A stretch of 64,000 nucleotides of DNA from a virus. The stretch lies in the IMG/VR virus record IMGVR_UViG_3300034170_000023, positions 19,208-83,207 of that record, one strand, 5' to 3'. How positions within the stretch are numbered: position 1 is the first letter of the stretch; each line of letters starts with the position of its first letter. Positions 3,706 through 63,372 of this stretch are shown here, one piece after another. The translations under genes and the position numbers were made by a program. Below the pieces are notes generated by a model that saw only the letters and a program-made list of their open reading frames with translations, was not told where the DNA came from and searched no databases.

Positions 3706-4012
3706 CGATACTAACATTAAGATCAACAACCTGTGGGAAAGGCTGTGTCTAGGACTTCTCTCCTTCATTGTTAGCTGTCTATTCCTTTTCTATCAAGGTC
3801 AGCGTGAAGACTTTAAAGGGCTTGAAGAGAAAGTTGTGACGATGCAGACAGGTAAGGTCAACAAAGAAGACCTCCGAGAGGTTGAGGCAAGGCTTAACAC
3901 TAAAATGGATGCTGGCTTCTCCAACTTAATTGCTAGGAGTGCTCAGGATAAAGCTGATGTGATTTCTCGTCTAGACTTATATTTTAGTCAGGTGAAGAAC
4001 ACTAAGCGATAA
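3695..4012 (+). CDS. Single-TM coiled-coil membrane protein, lysis region
   Basis: One TM followed by a coiled coil; overlaps the o-spanin end. Confidence 0.5.
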   Translation: MSNDDTNIKINNLWERLCLGLLSFIVSCLFLFYQGQREDFKGLEEKVVTMQTGKVNKEDLREVEARLNTKMDAGFSNLIARSAQDKADVISRLDLYFSQVKNTKR

Positions 4013-5591: not shown

Positions 5592-7325
5592 TCAAGCACT
5601 GCACGAAATACATTCATCCTTCACCACAACACCACTACGAGAGTAGATGTAATACTGACTCAAGATGTTCTCATCTAGCAACACCTTTGTCAACAGTGTA
5701 GCAATCAAATCCTCACTCCCATCCTCTGGAACATAGAAGTTTAAACTCTGACCTTGACAAGTATACTGCTGGCGTTGACTTGCGTGGCGTAGAAGAATCT
5801 CTTGATCCATTTCAAAGCCATTTAGATATACCAACTTCTCTTCTTCATCAGCCCAATCAACATGTTGAATAGAGCCAAGGTGGTCGATAATATCTTTAAC
5901 AGTCTCTTCTGTGTAAACTCCCTTGTCCTTCATAAACTTATAGAACATTGGAGGAATACGTCGTAGCTCTCCAACACTACTACCAGCATCAAAGATCATG
6001 CCCGGATCTGGGAACCATGATTCACTAACACCACCCATCAACAAGCTTGTAGTCTTAGTTGGGGCATAGGCTGTACGGTGTGTATTACGAACACCATAAC
6101 CTTCACACCACTCAGGACTTCCATACTCTTTAGCTAACCACTCACTTGCACGCAAGGATTCATCATTCAAGTGTTTAGCAATGCGTGTACTTAGGAACTG
6201 AGCTTCCAAACTAATGTAAGGGATGTTCTTAGATTGCAAATAAGTATGGAAACCTAAAACACCCAAACCAATTGCACGACCTTTAATTGTAAACTCACGA
6301 ACCTTTTCAAGACCTGTAATGTCTACAGACTTTTCAATGAACTCTGAACACAAGCAGTCAAGGAAGACGGTTGCAATGAACACTGACTCACGTTCTGGTA
6401 TAGTATCCCAGTGAACAAGGTTCAAGGAAGCTAAGATACAAGAGTAGGTTAGCAACTCAGAGCTGTGCAACATAATTTCCGTACAAAGGTTTGAAGCTTC
6501 AATAAACAAGCCCCAGTCTTTGTACATCTTAGGACGGTGACGGTTTGCACAATCTACCTTAAACAGATAACCTTTGCCAGTTGTCAGCTTAGTGTATACA
6601 GCTTTAATCCAACGACGATTCGCTTCTGGGTCATTCTGTTTTAACTTCTCAATAAAAGTATCTTTAATGATCCAACCATAGTTCTTACCATTATGATCAT
6701 GAGCAAGGGAATCACATGCTTCTTCCCAATCACCATGTTCAATGTCTAGGTAGGCGCCAATAGAGCCTCGACGAGCACCACCTTGACTGATCTTAGCTAC
6801 AGCAGTGAAGTAATCATCAATTACTGGGACAGCACCATTAGCTTTACCACCAGCACTAATCTTACTGCCTCGTGGACGGATATGGCTAAAGTTTGCACTT
6901 GTACCAAAACCCTCTTTTGATAACAAAGCAGTCTCTTTAATACCATCGTAGAAACTTACAACACTATCACCAATCAATTGACCAGAGCAAGCTACCATCA
7001 TCCCACGATCAGTGCCTGTATTAGCCAAAGCTGGTGAACTAGGGGAGAGAATACCATCCCACAACTCATTAAAGAACTTCTGTTCCCACTCAGCTTCACG
7101 ACCTTTCATATGTTTCGAGAGGGTATTAGCAATCTTCTGATGACGACCTAAAACCGCAGCTTCGTCTTTATAAGCATACTTCTCACGGAACATTTGCCAC
7201 CCTTGTGTTGAATACCACTCAGGTAGGTGCCCTTTCTTTTGTAGCTTCTTACGTTCTTTACTTAGCTGTTCAAACTTCTGTAGTTCCTCTTCAGGGATGT
7301 CGCCTACACTGTCTTCAATTAACAT
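5592..7325 (-). CDS. nrdA: Ribonucleotide reductase class Ia alpha subunit
   Basis: SPALAN, ASNLCTEI, CILASLNL, APT, YY pair and C-terminal CxxC; no ATP cone. Confidence 0.95.
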   Translation of the reverse strand: MLIEDSVGDIPEEELQKFEQLSKERKKLQKKGHLPEWYSTQGWQMFREKYAYKDEAAVLGRHQKIANTLSKHMKGREAEWEQKFFNELWDGILSPSSPALANTGTDRGMMVACSGQLIGDSVVSFYDGIKETALLSKEGFGTSANFSHIRPRGSKISAGGKANGAVPVIDDYFTAVAKISQGGARRGSIGAYLDIEHGDWEEACDSLAHDHNGKNYGWIIKDTFIEKLKQNDPEANRRWIKAVYTKLTTGKGYLFKVDCANRHRPKMYKDWGLFIEASNLCTEIMLHSSELLTYSCILASLNLVHWDTIPERESVFIATVFLDCLCSEFIEKSVDITGLEKVREFTIKGRAIGLGVLGFHTYLQSKNIPYISLEAQFLSTRIAKHLNDESLRASEWLAKEYGSPEWCEGYGVRNTHRTAYAPTKTTSLLMGGVSESWFPDPGMIFDAGSSVGELRRIPPMFYKFMKDKGVYTEETVKDIIDHLGSIQHVDWADEEEKLVYLNGFEMDQEILLRHASQRQQYTCQGQSLNFYVPEDGSEDLIATLLTKVLLDENILSQYYIYSRSGVVVKDECISCSA

Positions 7326-54017: not shown

Positions 54018-54749
54018 TTGATTATTGAAGATGGTGAACGGACTTTCTGGGTAGATACTGATACTGGAGAGATTGAGGCTGAGCAAGTAAACTTTGTAAC
54101 CACTAATAAAAAGAGAAAGAAAGAAGATAAATACTATTCTGATTCCCTACTCAGCACTACAACAGCCCGTAGTAAAGATGATATTGAGGCTTTCATTAAG
54201 GCAACTATAGACAAGCGTAAACTAATCACACTAAACAATGCACGTCTGTACCATGATGTAAACTGTGGTGAAGTGATGAGGAACGGAACAAAGAATAACT
54301 TTACAGTGCCAGCATACAATATAATGGAAAAGCTAATTAATGCCTTAACACTAAACAACTGTATTATTTGTACACCAGAAGATTTAGGTGTAATCTTGGA
54401 TTGTGATCCAAAGCATAATAAACGTACATTAGAATCTTGTAAGTCTTTGGTTAGGTATCAAGGTACTAGAGACATGCAACGTGGTTTTGTTAAGTTGTTT
54501 ATCAACCCTGCATTCGGTTGGAAGGGTGATTGTTCTATAGCTTACCGAAATCAACAGCGTGCAACAGGTGATTGGTATAGTGGTTTGAATACAGATTTAA
54601 AAGAGTTTGATGTAGGTGCATCTGGAGATATGAAGTTCAGCCCGACATTAGATAAATGGTTACTTGAATTGACAAGCAGAGCTAAACCCTTCAGCGAAGA
54701 TGCAGACTTATTTCGTGCATCATTTTTTAGTATTAAAGGTATGATTTAA
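54018..54749 (+). CDS. Putative RepL-like / winged-helix replication or DNA-binding protein
   Basis: VD.DTGEI start, HTH-like segment, LFINPAFGWKG; own sigma70 promoter at 53962. Confidence 0.4.
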   Translation: MIIEDGERTFWVDTDTGEIEAEQVNFVTTNKKRKKEDKYYSDSLLSTTTARSKDDIEAFIKATIDKRKLITLNNARLYHDVNCGEVMRNGTKNNFTVPAYNIMEKLINALTLNNCIICTPEDLGVILDCDPKHNKRTLESCKSLVRYQGTRDMQRGFVKLFINPAFGWKGDCSIAYRNQQRATGDWYSGLNTDLKEFDVGASGDMKFSPTLDKWLLELTSRAKPFSEDADLFRASFFSIKGMI

Positions 54750-55732
54750 TGAAGTATGAGGGATCTATCACAGAGTTAAGACATGATAATGAGCTATCAG
54801 ATAAAGGTCAGTATAAATATGTTGGGAGTTTCCAAGAGAAAGGCGTAGTTAGGATATTCATCTTTCTTTGTACTGTTTGCGAGAAAGATAAAGAGTTGTT
54901 TGGAGATGGCCTATTCTGGACAAGAAAGCAAGACTTTAAGAATAATCAACTCTTTTGTGGTTGTGCTAAAAAGGTGACTTGGACACTAGAGCAGTCAGAA
55001 ACTAAGTCAATAAGGGCCGCGTCAGAAGCTGGTAATACATTTGAAGGTATAATAGAGCCATATATTGGTGGCTCAAGTAGGTGTAACCTCTCTTGTGCTG
55101 TATGTAACCATAAATGGACATCTAAGCTATCTAACTTATGGGCCCTTAAGAGGGGTTGTCCAAGTTGTAGGACTATAAAATTTTTAACTGCTGCTAAATT
55201 TGCAAATTTAAAACCGGATTCAATTATCACTAAGTCTTTTATGGAAACAGGAGCCTACCACCCACACACCATATTTACAAAGATTGACAGGAAGGCTAAA
55301 AATTCTAAAACTAATTATTGGAGTGTGTATTGTCCAATATGTGAAGAGACGTCTGAGTGTCAGCAAGGTCACTTACTAAAAGGCAGCATTTCGTGTGGGT
55401 GCTCTATGCACAACCAAATGGAGTCTTATATTAATCTAGTGAAAGATGGAGATGAAGTCGTAGCTATAAAATTTGGCATATCAAAAGATTCCCATAAGAG
55501 ACTAGTATCTCACAACTATAATACAACGTATAATGTTGAAATGCTGAGTATTTTTAAATATGATAAAAGCATAGATTGTAAAGCAGCAGAGCGGGAGTGT
55601 CTAGATACACTAGCGTGCGGTATAATTGAAAAAGAAATGTTTCATGGCGGCTGGACCGAAACAACATACCCATACAATATAGATGTTGTGTCACGTATAT
55701 TTAAGAAGTTTGGAGGTGTGCGTATATTTTAG
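54749..55732 (+). mobile_element. Homing endonuclease: Zn-ribbon repeats plus C-terminal GIY-YIG/T5orf172-like domain
   Basis: Multiple CxxC; SYI...IKFGIS....R...E...GWTET. Confidence 0.7.
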
Positions 55733-56068
55733 ATATTTATTTTACACTATGCTTGACATTCACACAGTAAGTTTGATAGAGTCCTCCTATTGAAACCAAC
55801 TAAGGAGTCCACAATAATGGGCGAAGTAAACTTTTGTTCAGAATGTGGACGAATTAACAACTACTGTGTATGTCATATTGAAGTAGAATACTTAGAAGAA
55901 AGCACTGAAGTATTCCGTGGAGAATATGCTTTTGAGGGCCTAACAGACCCAGATACAAGTATGTTTAAAACTATTTTACCTAAATATGAATAAATAGTTG
56001 ACAAATTAATATAAGTATGCCAGTATTAGGTATATCTAGTTGAAAGGCTGGATATACCTAATCAATCG

Positions 56069-56400
56069 AAGTACACATGTACCCCGGCAGATAGTGTATG
56101 GCTTCATTGCACGTAGGGTGAGACGTTGGTTACTGGCAATTGAATGCTTTACAGGTCACTTATTAATAAATTAAAACTCACTCTGGTTAATCTTAAGTGA
56201 GTTAATGTTTATTGTAGTGAGTTTTAAAGTGACACGGATACTACGTTCATACGCGGCGTAGTACGTTGACAAGTAGGCTCAGTCAATTCAACTTGGATGC
56301 TAGATTAACAAGGGTGGACTACGAGAGCCATACAAATCTAGTAGCGTCTACGAAAAGACAGGGTGTAAAATAGAAGTGTACCTTGGGCTAAATGCTCAGC
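56069..56400 (+). ncRNA. Large multibranch structured RNA (unassigned)
   Basis: No ORF of 60 aa or more; nested long-range helices with G-U pairs; TTGACA promoter at 55998. Confidence 0.6.
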
Positions 56401-56690
56401 ACTCCTAACAACAAAGCTCCTATAAACTCCCTCTCCTTATAAAGCTTTGTTCTCCTCGCAGGCTTATGACAACTGCTGCTTTCCTCCTTCTCAGTAGTTG
56501 TCTCCTTAAATAGTCCTGCATTAAAGACCCTTTATTTCCTCTCCTTAGTAGAGTGGTCTTTGGCATCTTATACGTGTTTACTCTCCTATCACGTATAAGA
56601 TGTATTTCTTAAGAATCTTCCTTCTGTTGAATATTGTACGGAATTTGGTATTTAGCCAATATAGTCCTACGAGGATTCTTAAGAAATGCA
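56401..56690 (+). ncRNA. Hairpin array displaying anti-Shine-Dalgarno CUCCU motifs
   Basis: 8 CTCCT copies in about 190 nt; four hairpins with C/U-rich loops; terminal 20-bp stem. Confidence 0.65.
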
Positions 56691-56722
56691 TTTAATTTAA
56701 AATAACAATGTTTGAGGTAATT

Positions 56723-57055
56723 ATGTCACTAATTATGAAGCGTGGTGATAGCGTAAATTACCTCGCAGTTATTCCAGATACATTTCCAGATGGCTACTTC
56801 ACAAATTGGTCAGTAGCAAGTCAGATCCGTACAGCTCAATATGACATCTTAGTCACTTCTCTAACGTGTACATGGGCAGACCCTCTCACTACACGTAACC
56901 TTCTAGTCACAGAGATTGTGACAACAGATTGGAAACTTGGTAAGGCTCTTATTGATATTCAATTCGTAAGAGACAGTGATGGCTTCACTCTTAGTACAAA
57001 TACTCTAGAGATTGAGATTGTACGTGACATTACACATCCAGATACAGTGGTGTAA
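56723..57055 (+). CDS. Virion structural protein (BppU-N-like Ig fold)
   Basis: KRGDS...W.VASQIR...T.DW..G...DIQF...ST..L.I...DIT pattern. Confidence 0.5.
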   Translation: MSLIMKRGDSVNYLAVIPDTFPDGYFTNWSVASQIRTAQYDILVTSLTCTWADPLTTRNLLVTEIVTTDWKLGKALIDIQFVRDSDGFTLSTNTLEIEIVRDITHPDTVV

Positions 57056-57057
57056 GT

Positions 57058-57396
57058 ATGTCAGATCCTTGCATTATCAATGTCACGTTTACAAATAACA
57101 ACCCATCCTTTGTACTATCTCCTGTAAGTCCATCATCCCTTCCTATTGATATTGTTGATGCTATCAAAGGTGAGAAGGGTGAGCAAGGTATTCCGGGAGA
57201 CAGTACAAGCTTTGTGTGGACACAATCCATAGCATTAGACACTTGGACAGTTCCTCACAACCTTAACAAGTACCCTTCAGCTAGTATAGTTGATACAAAC
57301 AATAATCTTGTATTATCAGATGTATCCTACGTTGACATGAACACTATTCAAATCAAGCACGGCTCAGCATTTGCGGGCAAAGCATACCTAAACTGA
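57058..57396 (+). CDS. Fibre-associated protein with short collagen repeat
   Basis: GEKGEQGIPG; WTVPHNLNKYPS...AFAGKAYLN. Confidence 0.6.
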   Translation: MSDPCIINVTFTNNNPSFVLSPVSPSSLPIDIVDAIKGEKGEQGIPGDSTSFVWTQSIALDTWTVPHNLNKYPSASIVDTNNNLVLSDVSYVDMNTIQIKHGSAFAGKAYLN

Positions 57397-60797: not shown

Positions 60798-61634
60798 ATG
60801 ATTAAAAACAGTATTAAAGATTATGCTGGTCAAACCAATAAGTTCCTGACAATTATTGAACGTCATGAACCAACTGAGATGGATACAGCAGACACAGCAC
60901 TTTGGAAAGCTAAATGTATTTGTGGTGTTGAGTGTGTCATTGCTCACAAGTCCTTCCGTAAGAGAACAACTTGTGGTTGTGGCATCAGAAGTACTAAATA
61001 CCAAGCTGGAAATAAGTATGGATTACTAACTATTGTAAGCGAAGGCCCTAAAGCAGAGTATGCCAACAAGCGTCAAGTCTGGTGTAAATGTGACTGCGGG
61101 AATGAAAATCTTACGCTAGTTTCCACAAATAATTTGGTTTCTGGCAACACTTCAAGTTGTGGATGTGTTGGTGAAGAAAGTCGAAAGACTCACGGCATGT
61201 CAAACACACGAACTTACCAGATTCATGAAGGAATGATTCGTCGTTGCAAACCCCATCTAGCAGATGACTTCCCATATCACGCGGGAAAAGGAATTAAGGT
61301 TTGTGAAGAATGGGAAGTATTTGAAAAGTTCTACGAAGACATGGGCGAATGTCCTGATGGACTAAGCCTCGACCGGATTGATGTGCATGGTAACTACTGC
61401 AAAGAAAATTGCCGATGGGCAACTAATAGTGTTCAAGGCTATAACAAAGGTTTAGATCCAAATAACACTTCTGGTAAGTCTGGCGTAAGTTGGTATACAC
61501 AGAGTGAGAAATGGTCTGCTGAAATCCATGTAGAAAACAGACATATCCGATTAGGTATGTTCTCTAACTTTGATGACGCAGTTAAAGCTCGCGAAGAAGC
61601 AGAACTTAAATACTACGGATGGAATAAACAATGA
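60798..61634 (+). mobile_element. HNH-AP2 homing endonuclease with Cys-rich N-terminal repeats
   Basis: C.C.CG repeats, THGMS, F..DMG, SLDRIDV.GNY..ENCRWA, NNTSG..GV AP2 domain; stop overlaps the TerL start (ATGA). Confidence 0.88.
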
Positions 61635-63372
61635 GTAATAAAGAGAAGGAGGTCCGCATTGGGCCTTCGTCCACTTTCCAAGCAAAATACCTCAACTCAG
61701 ATGCTCAGATCATGCTGGTTGGTGGAGCGGCTTAACCTAGATCGGGTCGCTATAAACTCCTCTAATTCAGGGAACGCTAAGGGAGAAATCCTATGCCAAT
61801 CCTGAGCGAAGCCCTTAAAAGGGAACGTGCAGAGACTAGTCGAAAGACGTAGGATGCAAGCGCATTCGAAACGGGGGGCAACTTTGTAAGTTGAAGATAT
61901 AGTCCAGTTACACTAGAAATAGTGGAAAAGAAGTAGCGTTCTTATAATTATCGGGATCATCAAAAAGTTACGTCGGGTTGATGAGGCATCTACGCTTCGT
62001 CCACGACAGCAACTATAAAGCATACTGCATTCGTAAAAACTCCAGTGCCATTATGGCTTCTGGTGGTTTGTTCTGGGAAGCTGTGAAGTTATACACACAG
62101 TTTGAACCGAACATTAAAGTTAAACTTAAAGATCAAAAGATTGTTTTTCCTTCTGGCGCTGAAATTAGCTTCTCTCACTATGAGAATGACACAGCAGCTA
62201 AGAAGTATCAGGGTATTCAAATCTCAAATATTTTTTATGATGAGGTTACGCACGCCGATAACGAAGAACAACTATGGTGGTTATGGTCACGTCTTCGTTC
62301 TGATGCAGAAAACGTACACTCAATGTGGTGGTCATGTAACCCAGATAATGCTAGTTGGGTTCTTAAGTATGCAATGTGGTGGTTGTTCCCAGAAGGTCAC
62401 GAATTAGCTGGTCGTCCAGATCCAGAAAAGAATGGCAAGATTCGGTATCTTCTTCGGATTGCTGGTGAGCTGGTTTGGGGCGATACAAGAGAAGAATTGA
62501 TTGAGAAGTATGGTAATCATAAACTCTCTGTTGAACATGAAGACCAAGTAAAACCAATTAGTTTTCAAGGGTTATTTGGCACCATTGATGACAATCCCGA
62601 TTTGCGGCGATCTAACCCACTCTACAAATCAAATCTTCAGGCGCTCCCAAAACTAGACCGAGAAAGATTACTTTTTGGGAACTGGTTTGCAAGGCCAGAT
62701 GGCAGTTCGTATTACGATAGAACAAGTTGTAAAGAACTTACTAGCATTCCAAGTGAAAGAGATTTCACAAAGATAGTTAGGGTTTTCGACGTAGCGGGCA
62801 CAATTCCACATGACGGTAACAGATCGCCAGATTACTTTGCAAGCGTCAAGATGGGCAAGTTAGTATCTGGAAATTATGTCATCCTAGATATAGTCCGTAC
62901 ACGGATTACCTTTGGTAGTTGGTTGGAACATATCTTAGGTCTTGCAAGAGAAGATGGCCCTAATGTGGATATCGTTCTTGGTGAAGATCCTAACCCAGCA
63001 GCCAAGGCAGCGATCAACTTGCTTGCAAGAGAGATTATTGAAGCGGGCTTTGTTTGTAAAACCAAACGTGCATCTGCTGGTAAACTTGATTCTTTCAGAC
63101 CCTTCGCAGCAGCAGCAGAATTAGGTGCTGTAGATATTGTTAAGAACTGTGGGAATGACTTATGGAATAAGATTGTTAGTAATAATGACTTCTTCTATAA
63201 AGAGTTGGAAAACTTTGATGGTACTCGAAAGGGTGGCGAACTAGGCCATGATGATATGGTCGACTGTTGTTCTCTAGCATTTATGTACCTAGCCCAGAAA
63301 GTTCACATCGGAAACTTCCTCCCCGGCATCCAATCAATTGACCTCTCACAAAAGAACGCATTCAAATTCTAA
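61631..63372 (+). CDS. terL: Terminase large subunit, spliced: join(61631..61732,61954..63372)
   Basis: Splicing restores Walker A GGAA|GSSKS; Walker B FYDE, CNP, RLL.GNW, nuclease FDVA, HDDMVD. Confidence 0.92.
61733..61953 (+). mobile_element. ORF-less group I intron (IA2-like), 221 nt
   Basis: P1 AGCGGCU/GGUCGCU with U-G at the 5' splice site; R GCAGAGACUA (61829); S AAGAUAUAGUCC (61894-905); P7.1, P7.2, P8, P9; terminal G. Confidence 0.93.

Follow-up and report, generated by a model that had tools for sequence, protein, structure and literature searches.

What is encoded in a 714-nt gap without open reading frames (55994–56707) that lies between a 58-aa gene and a 110-aa gene of a phage genome, and what could a run of hairpins with anti-Shine-Dalgarno loops do there? 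The window analyzed here, a stretch of 64,000 nucleotides, comprises bases 19208–83207 of a complete 83,207-bp IMG/VR virus genome with 127-bp direct terminal repeats. Its large terminase (TerL) is ~50% identical to those of the Pseudomonas phages vB_PpS_SYP, vB_PsaM_M1, and phiPMW, and its gene order is that of phiPMW, with a minus-strand PRPS/NAMPT block and then a plus-strand block that, as in phiPMW, contains small genes, the tRNA region, a few virion genes, and TerL. An earlier note made from the sequence of this window described an array of hairpins in the gap and proposed that they form an RNA that masks Shine-Dalgarno (SD) sequences of host or early phage mRNAs. The features of the gap and its downstream boundary, with the hairpins as predicted by folding, are as follows.

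55998–56026, plus strand: candidate sigma70-like promoter TTGACA-N17-CAGTAT, read from the sequence and below the scan threshold, which would drive the whole non-coding gap.
56410–56451, plus strand: hairpin 1, with loop ACUCCCUCUCC and a two-tier stem, AACAAAGCU / UAUAA.
56452–56467, plus strand: linker 1, UCUCCUCGCAGGCUUAU, with a single-stranded CUCCU; invariant in the related contigs L003 and L016.
56468–56502, plus strand: hairpin 2, with an 11-bp stem and loop CUUUCCUCCUUCU, which includes CCUCCUU as in the 16S 3′ end.
56503–56521, plus strand: linker 2, (C)UCCUUAAAUAGUCCUGCAU.
56522–56562, plus strand: hairpin 3, with three G-U pairs and loop UCCUCUCCUU, also given as (U)CCUCUCCUU(A).
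56563–56603, plus strand: hairpin 4, with a 14-bp stem and loop UUUACUCUCCUAU.
56599–56692, plus strand: terminal long hairpin of 94 nt, with a lower stem of ~22 bp, AUUUCUUAAGAAUC.../...GAUUCUUAAGAAAU.
56723–57055, plus strand: first downstream gene, 110 aa, function unassigned, with the SD sequence GAGG, heading the virion-gene block.

The plus strand carries CTCCT at 56402, 56417, 56433, 56452, 56484, 56502, 56541, and 56583, exactly the eight positions that had been reported. The window as a whole contains 83 copies of this motif in 64 kb (1.30 per kb), equivalent to ~0.26 expected per 200 nt, and the second-highest count for any 200-nt segment, be it of the 64-kb window or of the full 83-kb genome, is three. 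The base content of 56395–56610 is 28% C and 13% G, and neither GGAG nor AGGA occurs there on the plus strand. The minimum free energy (MFE) fold of the plus strand over 56395–56700 reaches −96.1 kcal/mol, with z = −9.9 relative to dinucleotide shuffles, compared with −85.1 and z = −5.7 for the minus strand. This fold reproduces, at 56410–56451, 56468–56502, 56522–56562, and 56563–56603, the four hairpins described in the earlier note, which are adjacent, 35–42 nt long, and have CU-rich loops of 10–13 nt that all contain CUCC. The motif CUCCU is repeated in the two linkers (56452 and 56502), again as described, and the closing stem, which had been given as 20 bp, corresponds to the ~22-bp lower stem of the terminal hairpin. 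Above this stem, the terminal hairpin also has a CU-rich internal loop and an apical AUAUUG-stem-loop. The five hairpins contain nine G-U pairs on the plus strand and two on the minus strand, in agreement with the strand assignment in the note. The lower stem of the terminal hairpin has the size of an RNase III substrate, and the hairpin is possibly an RNase III or other processing site. No intrinsic terminator-like site was found within 55400–57200; the terminal hairpin is rich in A and U, and UUUAAUUUAAAAU comes after it.

Relatives were fetched from IMG/VR by their TerL, giving 35 loci, while a probe of the same database with the downstream 110-aa protein returned no relatives. By blastn, the array is 87% identical in L003 and L016, the latter of which has a TerL 98% identical to that of the window. 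RNAalifold predicts 95 pairs from the three copies, with compensation on both sides in 9 of the 95, all in hairpins 2–4, and with the loops CUUUCCUCCUUCU, UCCUCUCCUU, and (U/C)CUCUCCUU maintained across the alignment. In hairpin 1, the stem is identical in L003 and L016 and the loop differs, yet remains CU-rich (ACCUACUCCCUCUCC and AUUCCCCUCC). Hairpin 2 has an invariant loop and compensated stem columns (73–76/94–97), and hairpin 3 has a conserved loop with compensated columns at 130/153 and 133/150. The stem of hairpin 4 is largely different in the two relatives and its loop keeps (U/C)CUCUCCUU, and each arm of the terminal hairpin is one base shorter in L003 and L016, the two deletions compensating each other. 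On the plus strand, the three-sequence alignment comprises 256 Watson-Crick cells, 23 G-U cells, and 4 non-pairs; read on the minus strand, each of the 23 G-U cells is a C-A, which brings the non-pairs at the same positions to 27. None of the six reading frames is open in all copies. A covariance model of the terminal hairpin (R1), which was built from plus-strand sequences, scores 107–116 bits on the plus strand and 24–36 bits on the minus strand. Conservation of loops with covariation of stems in related phages, which the earlier note had named as a check of its proposal, was thus observed.

At least nine more diverged contigs (L013, L021, L015, L032, L150, L091, L022, L023, and L029) share this architecture on unrelated stems, with two to four hairpins that have CUCUCCU or CCUCC loops and, in most cases, a long AUUUCUUAAG hairpin. 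Three CU-loop hairpins are present in each of L013 (=L019), L021 (=L073), L015, L032, L150, and L091, and the same six have homologous terminal hairpins with covarying middle stems. The long hairpin that they share can be written as AUUU(U)CUUAAG...CUUAAGAAA(A)U, and also as AUUU(U)CU...AGAAA(A)U, with an apical AUAUUG-CAGG...CCUG. In L013, L015, L032, and L150, unrelated stems carry one and the same 8-nt loop, CCUCUCCU. L022, L023, and L029 are looser variants that lack the terminal long hairpin, and L029 has a perfect TTGACA-N17-TATAAT promoter as well as a U tract after its last hairpin. A covariance model from the three near-identical sequences found only L013 and, weakly, L043; because it recovered few of the diverged members, these were compared by hand. 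MAFFT followed by RNAalifold gave no consensus for seven terminal hairpins because the stems were misaligned. As a negative control, the 330 nt upstream were inspected at 119 loci hit by an unrelated pattern of 16 nt; no more than one CU-loop hairpin was present at 115 of them, and the other four were three members of the family and one dubious case.

The segment 56401–56692 is a plus-strand copy of a conserved, non-coding, multi-hairpin RNA module. In this module, CUCUCCU or CCUCCUU is exposed by two linkers and by four hairpins whose stems evolve freely, and a long conserved hairpin closes the structure. The family is confined to a clade of phages of roughly 83–91 kb that are related to phiPMW, SYP, and M1.

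Two of these cultured phages were seen to have single hairpins of this type. In SYP (L171, ~3930–3965), the hairpin GGUGAUAGU[CCCUCUCCU]ACUGUCAUU follows a TTGACA-N17-TATAAT promoter and precedes the tRNA cluster. In phiPMW (L170, ~5975–6005), the hairpin CACCACC[CUCCUAA]GGUGGUG follows tRNA-Trp, and its other strand is annotated as a terminator.

In every copy whose locus holds TerL, the array lies on the TerL strand, ~2.5–6.5 kb upstream of that gene; in the window the array is at 56.4 kb and TerL at 61.6–63.4 kb, and L016, L013/L019, L021, L022, L023, L029, and L032 have the same layout. The array invariably separates the tRNA/early block from the virion genes and lies 30–100 nt before the next ORF. 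Homologues of the 110-aa gene come after the array in L003 and L013, and genes of a different family do so in L016, L015, L021, L023, and L029. A tRNA gene is located ~40–270 nt before the array in L016, L021, L022, L023, and L032, and relatives have one to six tRNAs at the locus equivalent to the non-coding gap. No tRNA gene was detected in the whole 83,207 bp of the present genome (G000). Therefore, the usual tRNA neighbor has been lost here, and the arrangement in the window is derived. The candidate promoter in the window is also weaker than its counterparts at the equivalent place, which are TTGACA-N17-TAAACT in L016, TTGCAA-N17-TACAAT in L091, and TTGACA-N17-TATAAT in L029.

Several other features of the region were recorded. 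The arrays of L016 and L003 are immediately preceded by tRNA-like 3′ ends (…GCACCA, GGTTCGAATCC…). Two genes upstream of the gap, at 54749–55732 (+), is a gene for a homing-endonuclease-like protein of 327 aa (phrog_681, E = 5e-44), which fits the mosaic, module-shuffled state of the locus among relatives. At 55780–55816 (+), a cis anti-SD, GAGUCCUCCU, lies upstream of the 58-aa gene, just 3′ of a TTGACA-N18-TAGAGT promoter, and can pair with that gene's own AAGGAGUC ribosome-binding site (RBS). TerL starts at 61633 (MSNKEKEV...), and a group I intron (61644–61926 in the Rfam listing, 93 bits; region 61633–61978) interrupts it after ~34 codons; related phages have one or two group I introns in TerL. 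A perfect 10-nt match between loop 2 of the array and codons 4–7 of TerL (GAGAAGGAGG, 61643–61652) was considered as a possible pairing and rejected, as it is at chance level and absent from the TerL genes of L013, L021, and L022.

The gap contains two further conserved elements between the promoter and the array. The first, a 69-nt element at 56063–56131 (+), comes after the promoter, matches an intergenic segment of Pseudomonas phage vB_PsaM_M1 at 88% identity, and occurs in 10 IMG/VR contigs with tRNA genes following. The stem CAAU/GUUGG encloses it, one pair covaries from C-G to U-A (ACCC/GGGU to ACCU/AGGU), and the element may be pseudoknotted. The second, a core at ~56230–56365 (+), consists of GGAUACUACGUUCAUACG..., a hairpin with a UUCAAC loop, a hairpin with a ACUACGAGAG loop, and a GCUAGA/UCUAG pairing. 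This core is common to seven contigs (L004, L005, L010, L012, L013, L014, and L015), with several compensatory changes. A search of Rfam gave no match for either the 69-nt element or the core. The earlier note had suggested that the array might be the effector domain of one ~620-nt RNA that includes this upstream structure, and here the comparison speaks against it. L003 and L016 combine the 69-nt element, a tRNA, a small ORF, and the array and lack the core, and L004, L005, L010, L012, and L014 have the core together with tRNAs and lack the array. The modules are separate in relatives, and thus the array is a module of its own and a single ~620-nt RNA is not required. In the window, the weak TTGACA promoter at 55998 may serve the 69-nt element, the core, and the array in a single transcript. 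In a 543-nt contig from a permafrost metatranscriptome, a tRNA 3′ end (...CCA) runs directly into hairpins 1–3, and short contigs of the upstream core were found in two other RNA libraries or studies; these matches are contigs that cover small shares of the stretch and are without strand, ends, or level, and DNA carry-over is possible.

The array matches no RNA family catalogued in Rfam. Searches of Rfam with the window and eight relatives, both at the gathering threshold and at E ≤ 10, assigned no family to the array, and the best sub-threshold matches, all on the plus strand, were LhrC, CcsR1, and ar14. An RNA released from the 3′ side of a tRNA would have a parallel in 3′ETS-leuZ, reportedly a 3′ external transcribed spacer RNA of a bacterial tRNA operon that sponges specific sRNAs through one site. 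The arrays of relatives similarly start right after the CCA end of a tRNA, but 3′ETS-leuZ is not known to be a multi-hairpin anti-SD array. Among 50,697 records of cultured phages, blastn detected nothing homologous to the array; its only match was to the upstream 69-nt element, in Pseudomonas phage M1. When the literature was searched for phage RNAs with the loop motif, only papers on miRNAs and thermometers came up. These searches bear out the statement in the note that no such phage array was known. The abundant, tRNA-adjacent sRNA1 and sRNA2 of PAK_P3 were considered as well and are not CU-loop arrays.

The nearest design, to which the note had pointed and with which the sub-threshold matches agree, is that of the cuckoo RNAs of Alphaproteobacteria (RSs0680/CcsR1-4 and SmelC397/NfeR1), which consist of two to four adjacent hairpins of 24–50 nt with loops of 9–27 nt (PMC4615179). 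Every loop of these RNAs presents the same anti-SD-like pyrimidine motif, and they are presumed to act by occluding the RBS (PMC4615179). Their stems are dominated by compensatory changes, so that only the loop motif is conserved (PMC4615179). The array shares with them the adjacent hairpins, the identical anti-SD-like motif in the loops, and the hypervariable stems. However, the cuckoo loop is CCUCCUCCC, which is absent from all loops of the array, where the motif is CUCUCCU or CCUCCUU. Cuckoo RNAs are encoded beside a DUF1127 gene on alphaproteobacterial chromosomes, whereas the array family is found next to tRNA genes in lytic-type phages and has an extra long terminal hairpin. The cuckoo covariance models score the array far below their gathering thresholds (CcsR1, RF02791, 18.3 vs 65.3; ar14, RF02344, 16.7 vs 58.8) and do not match the relatives L013, L021, L032, and L015. 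LhrC (RF00616) likewise scores 22.8 bits against a gathering threshold of 110. Occlusion of an RBS by C- or CU-rich loops is described for the cuckoo RNAs, RNAIII, and SprX (PMC4615179, PMC4005690). As in LhrC1-5 of Listeria and RNAIII and SprX of S. aureus, with their UCCC/CU-rich loops, the array has several CU- or C-rich single-stranded sites that could each pair with an SD sequence (PMC4005690; PMC4615179). Unlike those chromosomal sRNAs of Firmicutes, which have specific targets, it is a phage RNA with six to eight sites. Membership in the cuckoo or LhrC families fails on motif, covariance model score, and genomic setting, and the array is therefore best described as a separate, putative phage-borne regulator of cuckoo-like design.

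If the loops address RBSs, a trace might be expected in the RBSs of the phages themselves. We called genes in every genome with the same home-made procedure, in which ORFs are maximal and starts are chosen by SD strength, start codon, and length. With early and late classes defined by strand blocks anchored on TerL only, so that gene starts and timing classes are heuristic, and among genomes that are related and not independent, an AGGAGA RBS precedes 107 of 468 early genes (23%) and 3 of 153 late genes (2%) in the four array-bearing complete genomes (G000–G003; p = 2e-11). The five array-less relatives (G006, G007, G008, M1, and phiPMW) show a weaker trend in the same direction, with AGGAGA before 101 of 574 early genes (18%) and 16 of 176 late genes (9%; p = 0.006). 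For late genes, the difference between array-bearing and array-less genomes has p = 0.008. In 22 kb of late sense strand, AGGAGA is likewise rarer in the array-bearing genomes, with 1, 4, 3, and 1 copies, than in the array-less genomes, with 5, 3, 6, 10, and 7 copies. In each of the four array-bearing genomes, early RBSs pair more strongly than late ones with the loops of the same genome (p = 0.02, 0.03, 9e-5, and 0.03), and the energy of pairing to the 16S anti-SD hardly differs between early and late RBSs. No early/late difference in RBS pairing was found in phiPMW, and none was found for plain GGAG or AGGAG when the present genome was considered alone (p = 0.2–0.4). The loops are complementary to (A)AGGAGA(G), and all eight bases of UAAGGAGA are paired in a duplex with UCUCCUU(A). 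In a duplex with the 16S tail, the final A of UAAGGAGA is mismatched, and consequently the loops could out-compete ribosomes at exactly such sites. The partition of AGGAGA between early and late genes fits a masking of early-gene SD sites, as far as it can be read from sequence. Thus, of the overall interpretation in the earlier note, the structured plus-strand RNA stands and the RBSs fit its masking role, and the single ~620-nt RNA is not supported.

We consider the chances about even that the array is a trans-acting, multivalent anti-SD RNA that silences early RBSs of the AGGAGA type. In such a mechanism, the array RNA would be made within a tRNA or leader transcript, right after the tRNA in relatives and from the promoter at ~55998 here, and could be released by processing at the terminal hairpin. 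The freed RNA would act in trans, its loops pairing with (A)AGGAGA(G)-type sites over at least one base more than the 16S tail. This pairing would occlude the sites on early phage mRNAs, and possibly on host mRNAs, and late mRNAs, from which the motif has largely been lost, would remain translatable. Overall, the RNA would be a counterpart of the shut-off of GGAG(A) early sites by RegB of phage T4. RegB, acting with S1, inactivates early and not late mRNAs by cutting GGAG that has a purine-rich sequence after it (PMC1702504, PMC3014915), with GGAGRAYARAA as its strong sites (PMC3014915). The proposed logic is alike, as early RBSs are rich in AGGAGA and late ones are not; however, RegB is a protein nuclease, and the agent proposed here is an RNA that would pair without cutting. 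A search of the genome for RegB (PF10715) gave no match, and control genomes gave none either.

A more ambitious version of this mechanism, which we hold only tentatively and with the odds somewhat against it, has the array read an "RBS code" used throughout the phage. With rising amounts of the RNA, the six to eight UCUCCU sites that it carries would shut off the roughly one-fifth of early genes marked by AGGAGA, outpairing the 16S tail by one or two base pairs, and late genes, purged of the motif, would escape. The result would be an early-to-late switch made of RNA only, in place of a RegB-type nuclease, and host mRNAs with the same RBS might be silenced too.

Several considerations count against action in trans. 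Its targets would include 20% of the early genes of the phage itself and, probably, many genes of the host. It would compete with ~10^4 ribosomes, which raises questions of stoichiometry and selectivity. In addition, the late operon follows the array immediately in cis, with no clear terminator, and the very strict conservation of CCUCUCCU also fits a sequence-specific protein site. The last two points lead to two alternatives.

The first, which we consider unlikely, is a role in cis, in which the array insulates the late (virion) operon or forms its leader. Rho would be loaded on the C-rich, G-poor loops and linkers, or these would pair with downstream SD sequences of read-through transcripts, the long hairpin would be a site for RNase III processing or stability, and the whole would keep early/tRNA transcription from expressing late genes. 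The invariable location of the array at the tRNA/early-virion boundary, 30–100 nt before the next ORF, would suit such a role, as would the excess of C over G across 56395–56610, the lack of a predicted intrinsic terminator here, the match of the 22-bp stem to RNase III substrates, and the combination of a terminator and a phage promoter that phiPMW has at the corresponding site. A rut site is ~80 nt of C-rich, G-poor, largely unstructured RNA; the array region is 28% C and 13% G and lies mostly in stable hairpins. However, loading of Rho would require just unstructured YC-rich RNA, and neither covarying hairpins nor an invariant CUCUCCU. Sequestration in cis would similarly need just a single anti-SD. 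Two unrelated gene families are found downstream of the array among members, the version in L029, with its own promoter and U-tail, resembles a free-standing sRNA gene, and the loss of AGGAGA over the whole late block would be left unexplained.

It is quite improbable, in our estimate, that the array is instead a sponge or platform for protein, in which the repeated CCUCUCCU loops bind several copies of a pyrimidine-specific RNA-binding protein and so titrate or recruit it. Ribosomal protein S1, Rho, a cold-shock protein, a phage-encoded protein, or a KH-domain protein such as Era, which reads the CCUCC tail of 16S rRNA, would be candidates. The occurrence of the same 8-nt CCUCUCCU on unrelated stems in L013, L015, L032, and L150 is tighter than degenerate SD pairing requires, and multivalency, which is typical of the sponges CsrB, RsmZ, and CrcZ, also speaks for this reading. 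Nevertheless, no candidate protein was identified or found to be co-conserved, and the partition of AGGAGA between early and late genes is not predicted by a protein sponge. Moreover, the cuckoo motif is equally invariant and yet is interpreted as an anti-SD (PMC4615179).

That the array has no function of its own, and is a decayed tRNA-cluster spacer, a set of tRNA remnants, or chance pyrimidine-rich palindromes, is very unlikely. All tRNA genes are gone from this genome, and the arrays of relatives adjoin tRNAs or tRNA-like 3′ ends, but decay or chance does not account for compensatory stem evolution with invariant loops in at least 12 contigs, for a fold with z = −9.9, or for eight motifs where 0.26 are expected. 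Finally, a minus-strand RNA acting as a CsrA/RsmA-type sponge through AGGAG/GGA loops is all but ruled out by the 23 of 23 G-U cells that become C-A mismatches on that strand. In its favor, every loop of the reverse complement contains GGA, and Pseudomonas, the host of the nearest cultured relatives, has the Rsm system; against it, the minus-strand fold is the weaker one (z = −5.7 vs −9.9), no minus-strand promoter or terminator was found, the neighboring genes, the tRNAs, and the L029 promoter and terminator are all on the plus strand, and the loops are 8–13 nt long rather than ANGGAN penta- or hexaloops.

The regulatory RNAs of lytic phages are, to our knowledge, barely known, and we know of no phage RNA described as addressing RBSs as a class. 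The genome analyzed here adds to the family a member without tRNAs, in which four loops and two linkers are fused behind another conserved structured RNA. The present analysis further adds the metatranscriptome contigs, the single-hairpin versions in SYP and phiPMW, and the early/late partition of RBSs. The loops and their target motif are short and defined, and a cultured carrier of one such hairpin exists in Pseudomonas phage vB_PpS_SYP. If the silencing of AGGAGA-type early RBSs in trans is true, the module would be a compact, programmable, multivalent translation silencer. The temporal program of a whole phage clade would then be enforced partly at translation initiation by one small RNA, and the genome would carry the signature of this regulation in late genes that are free of the motif.
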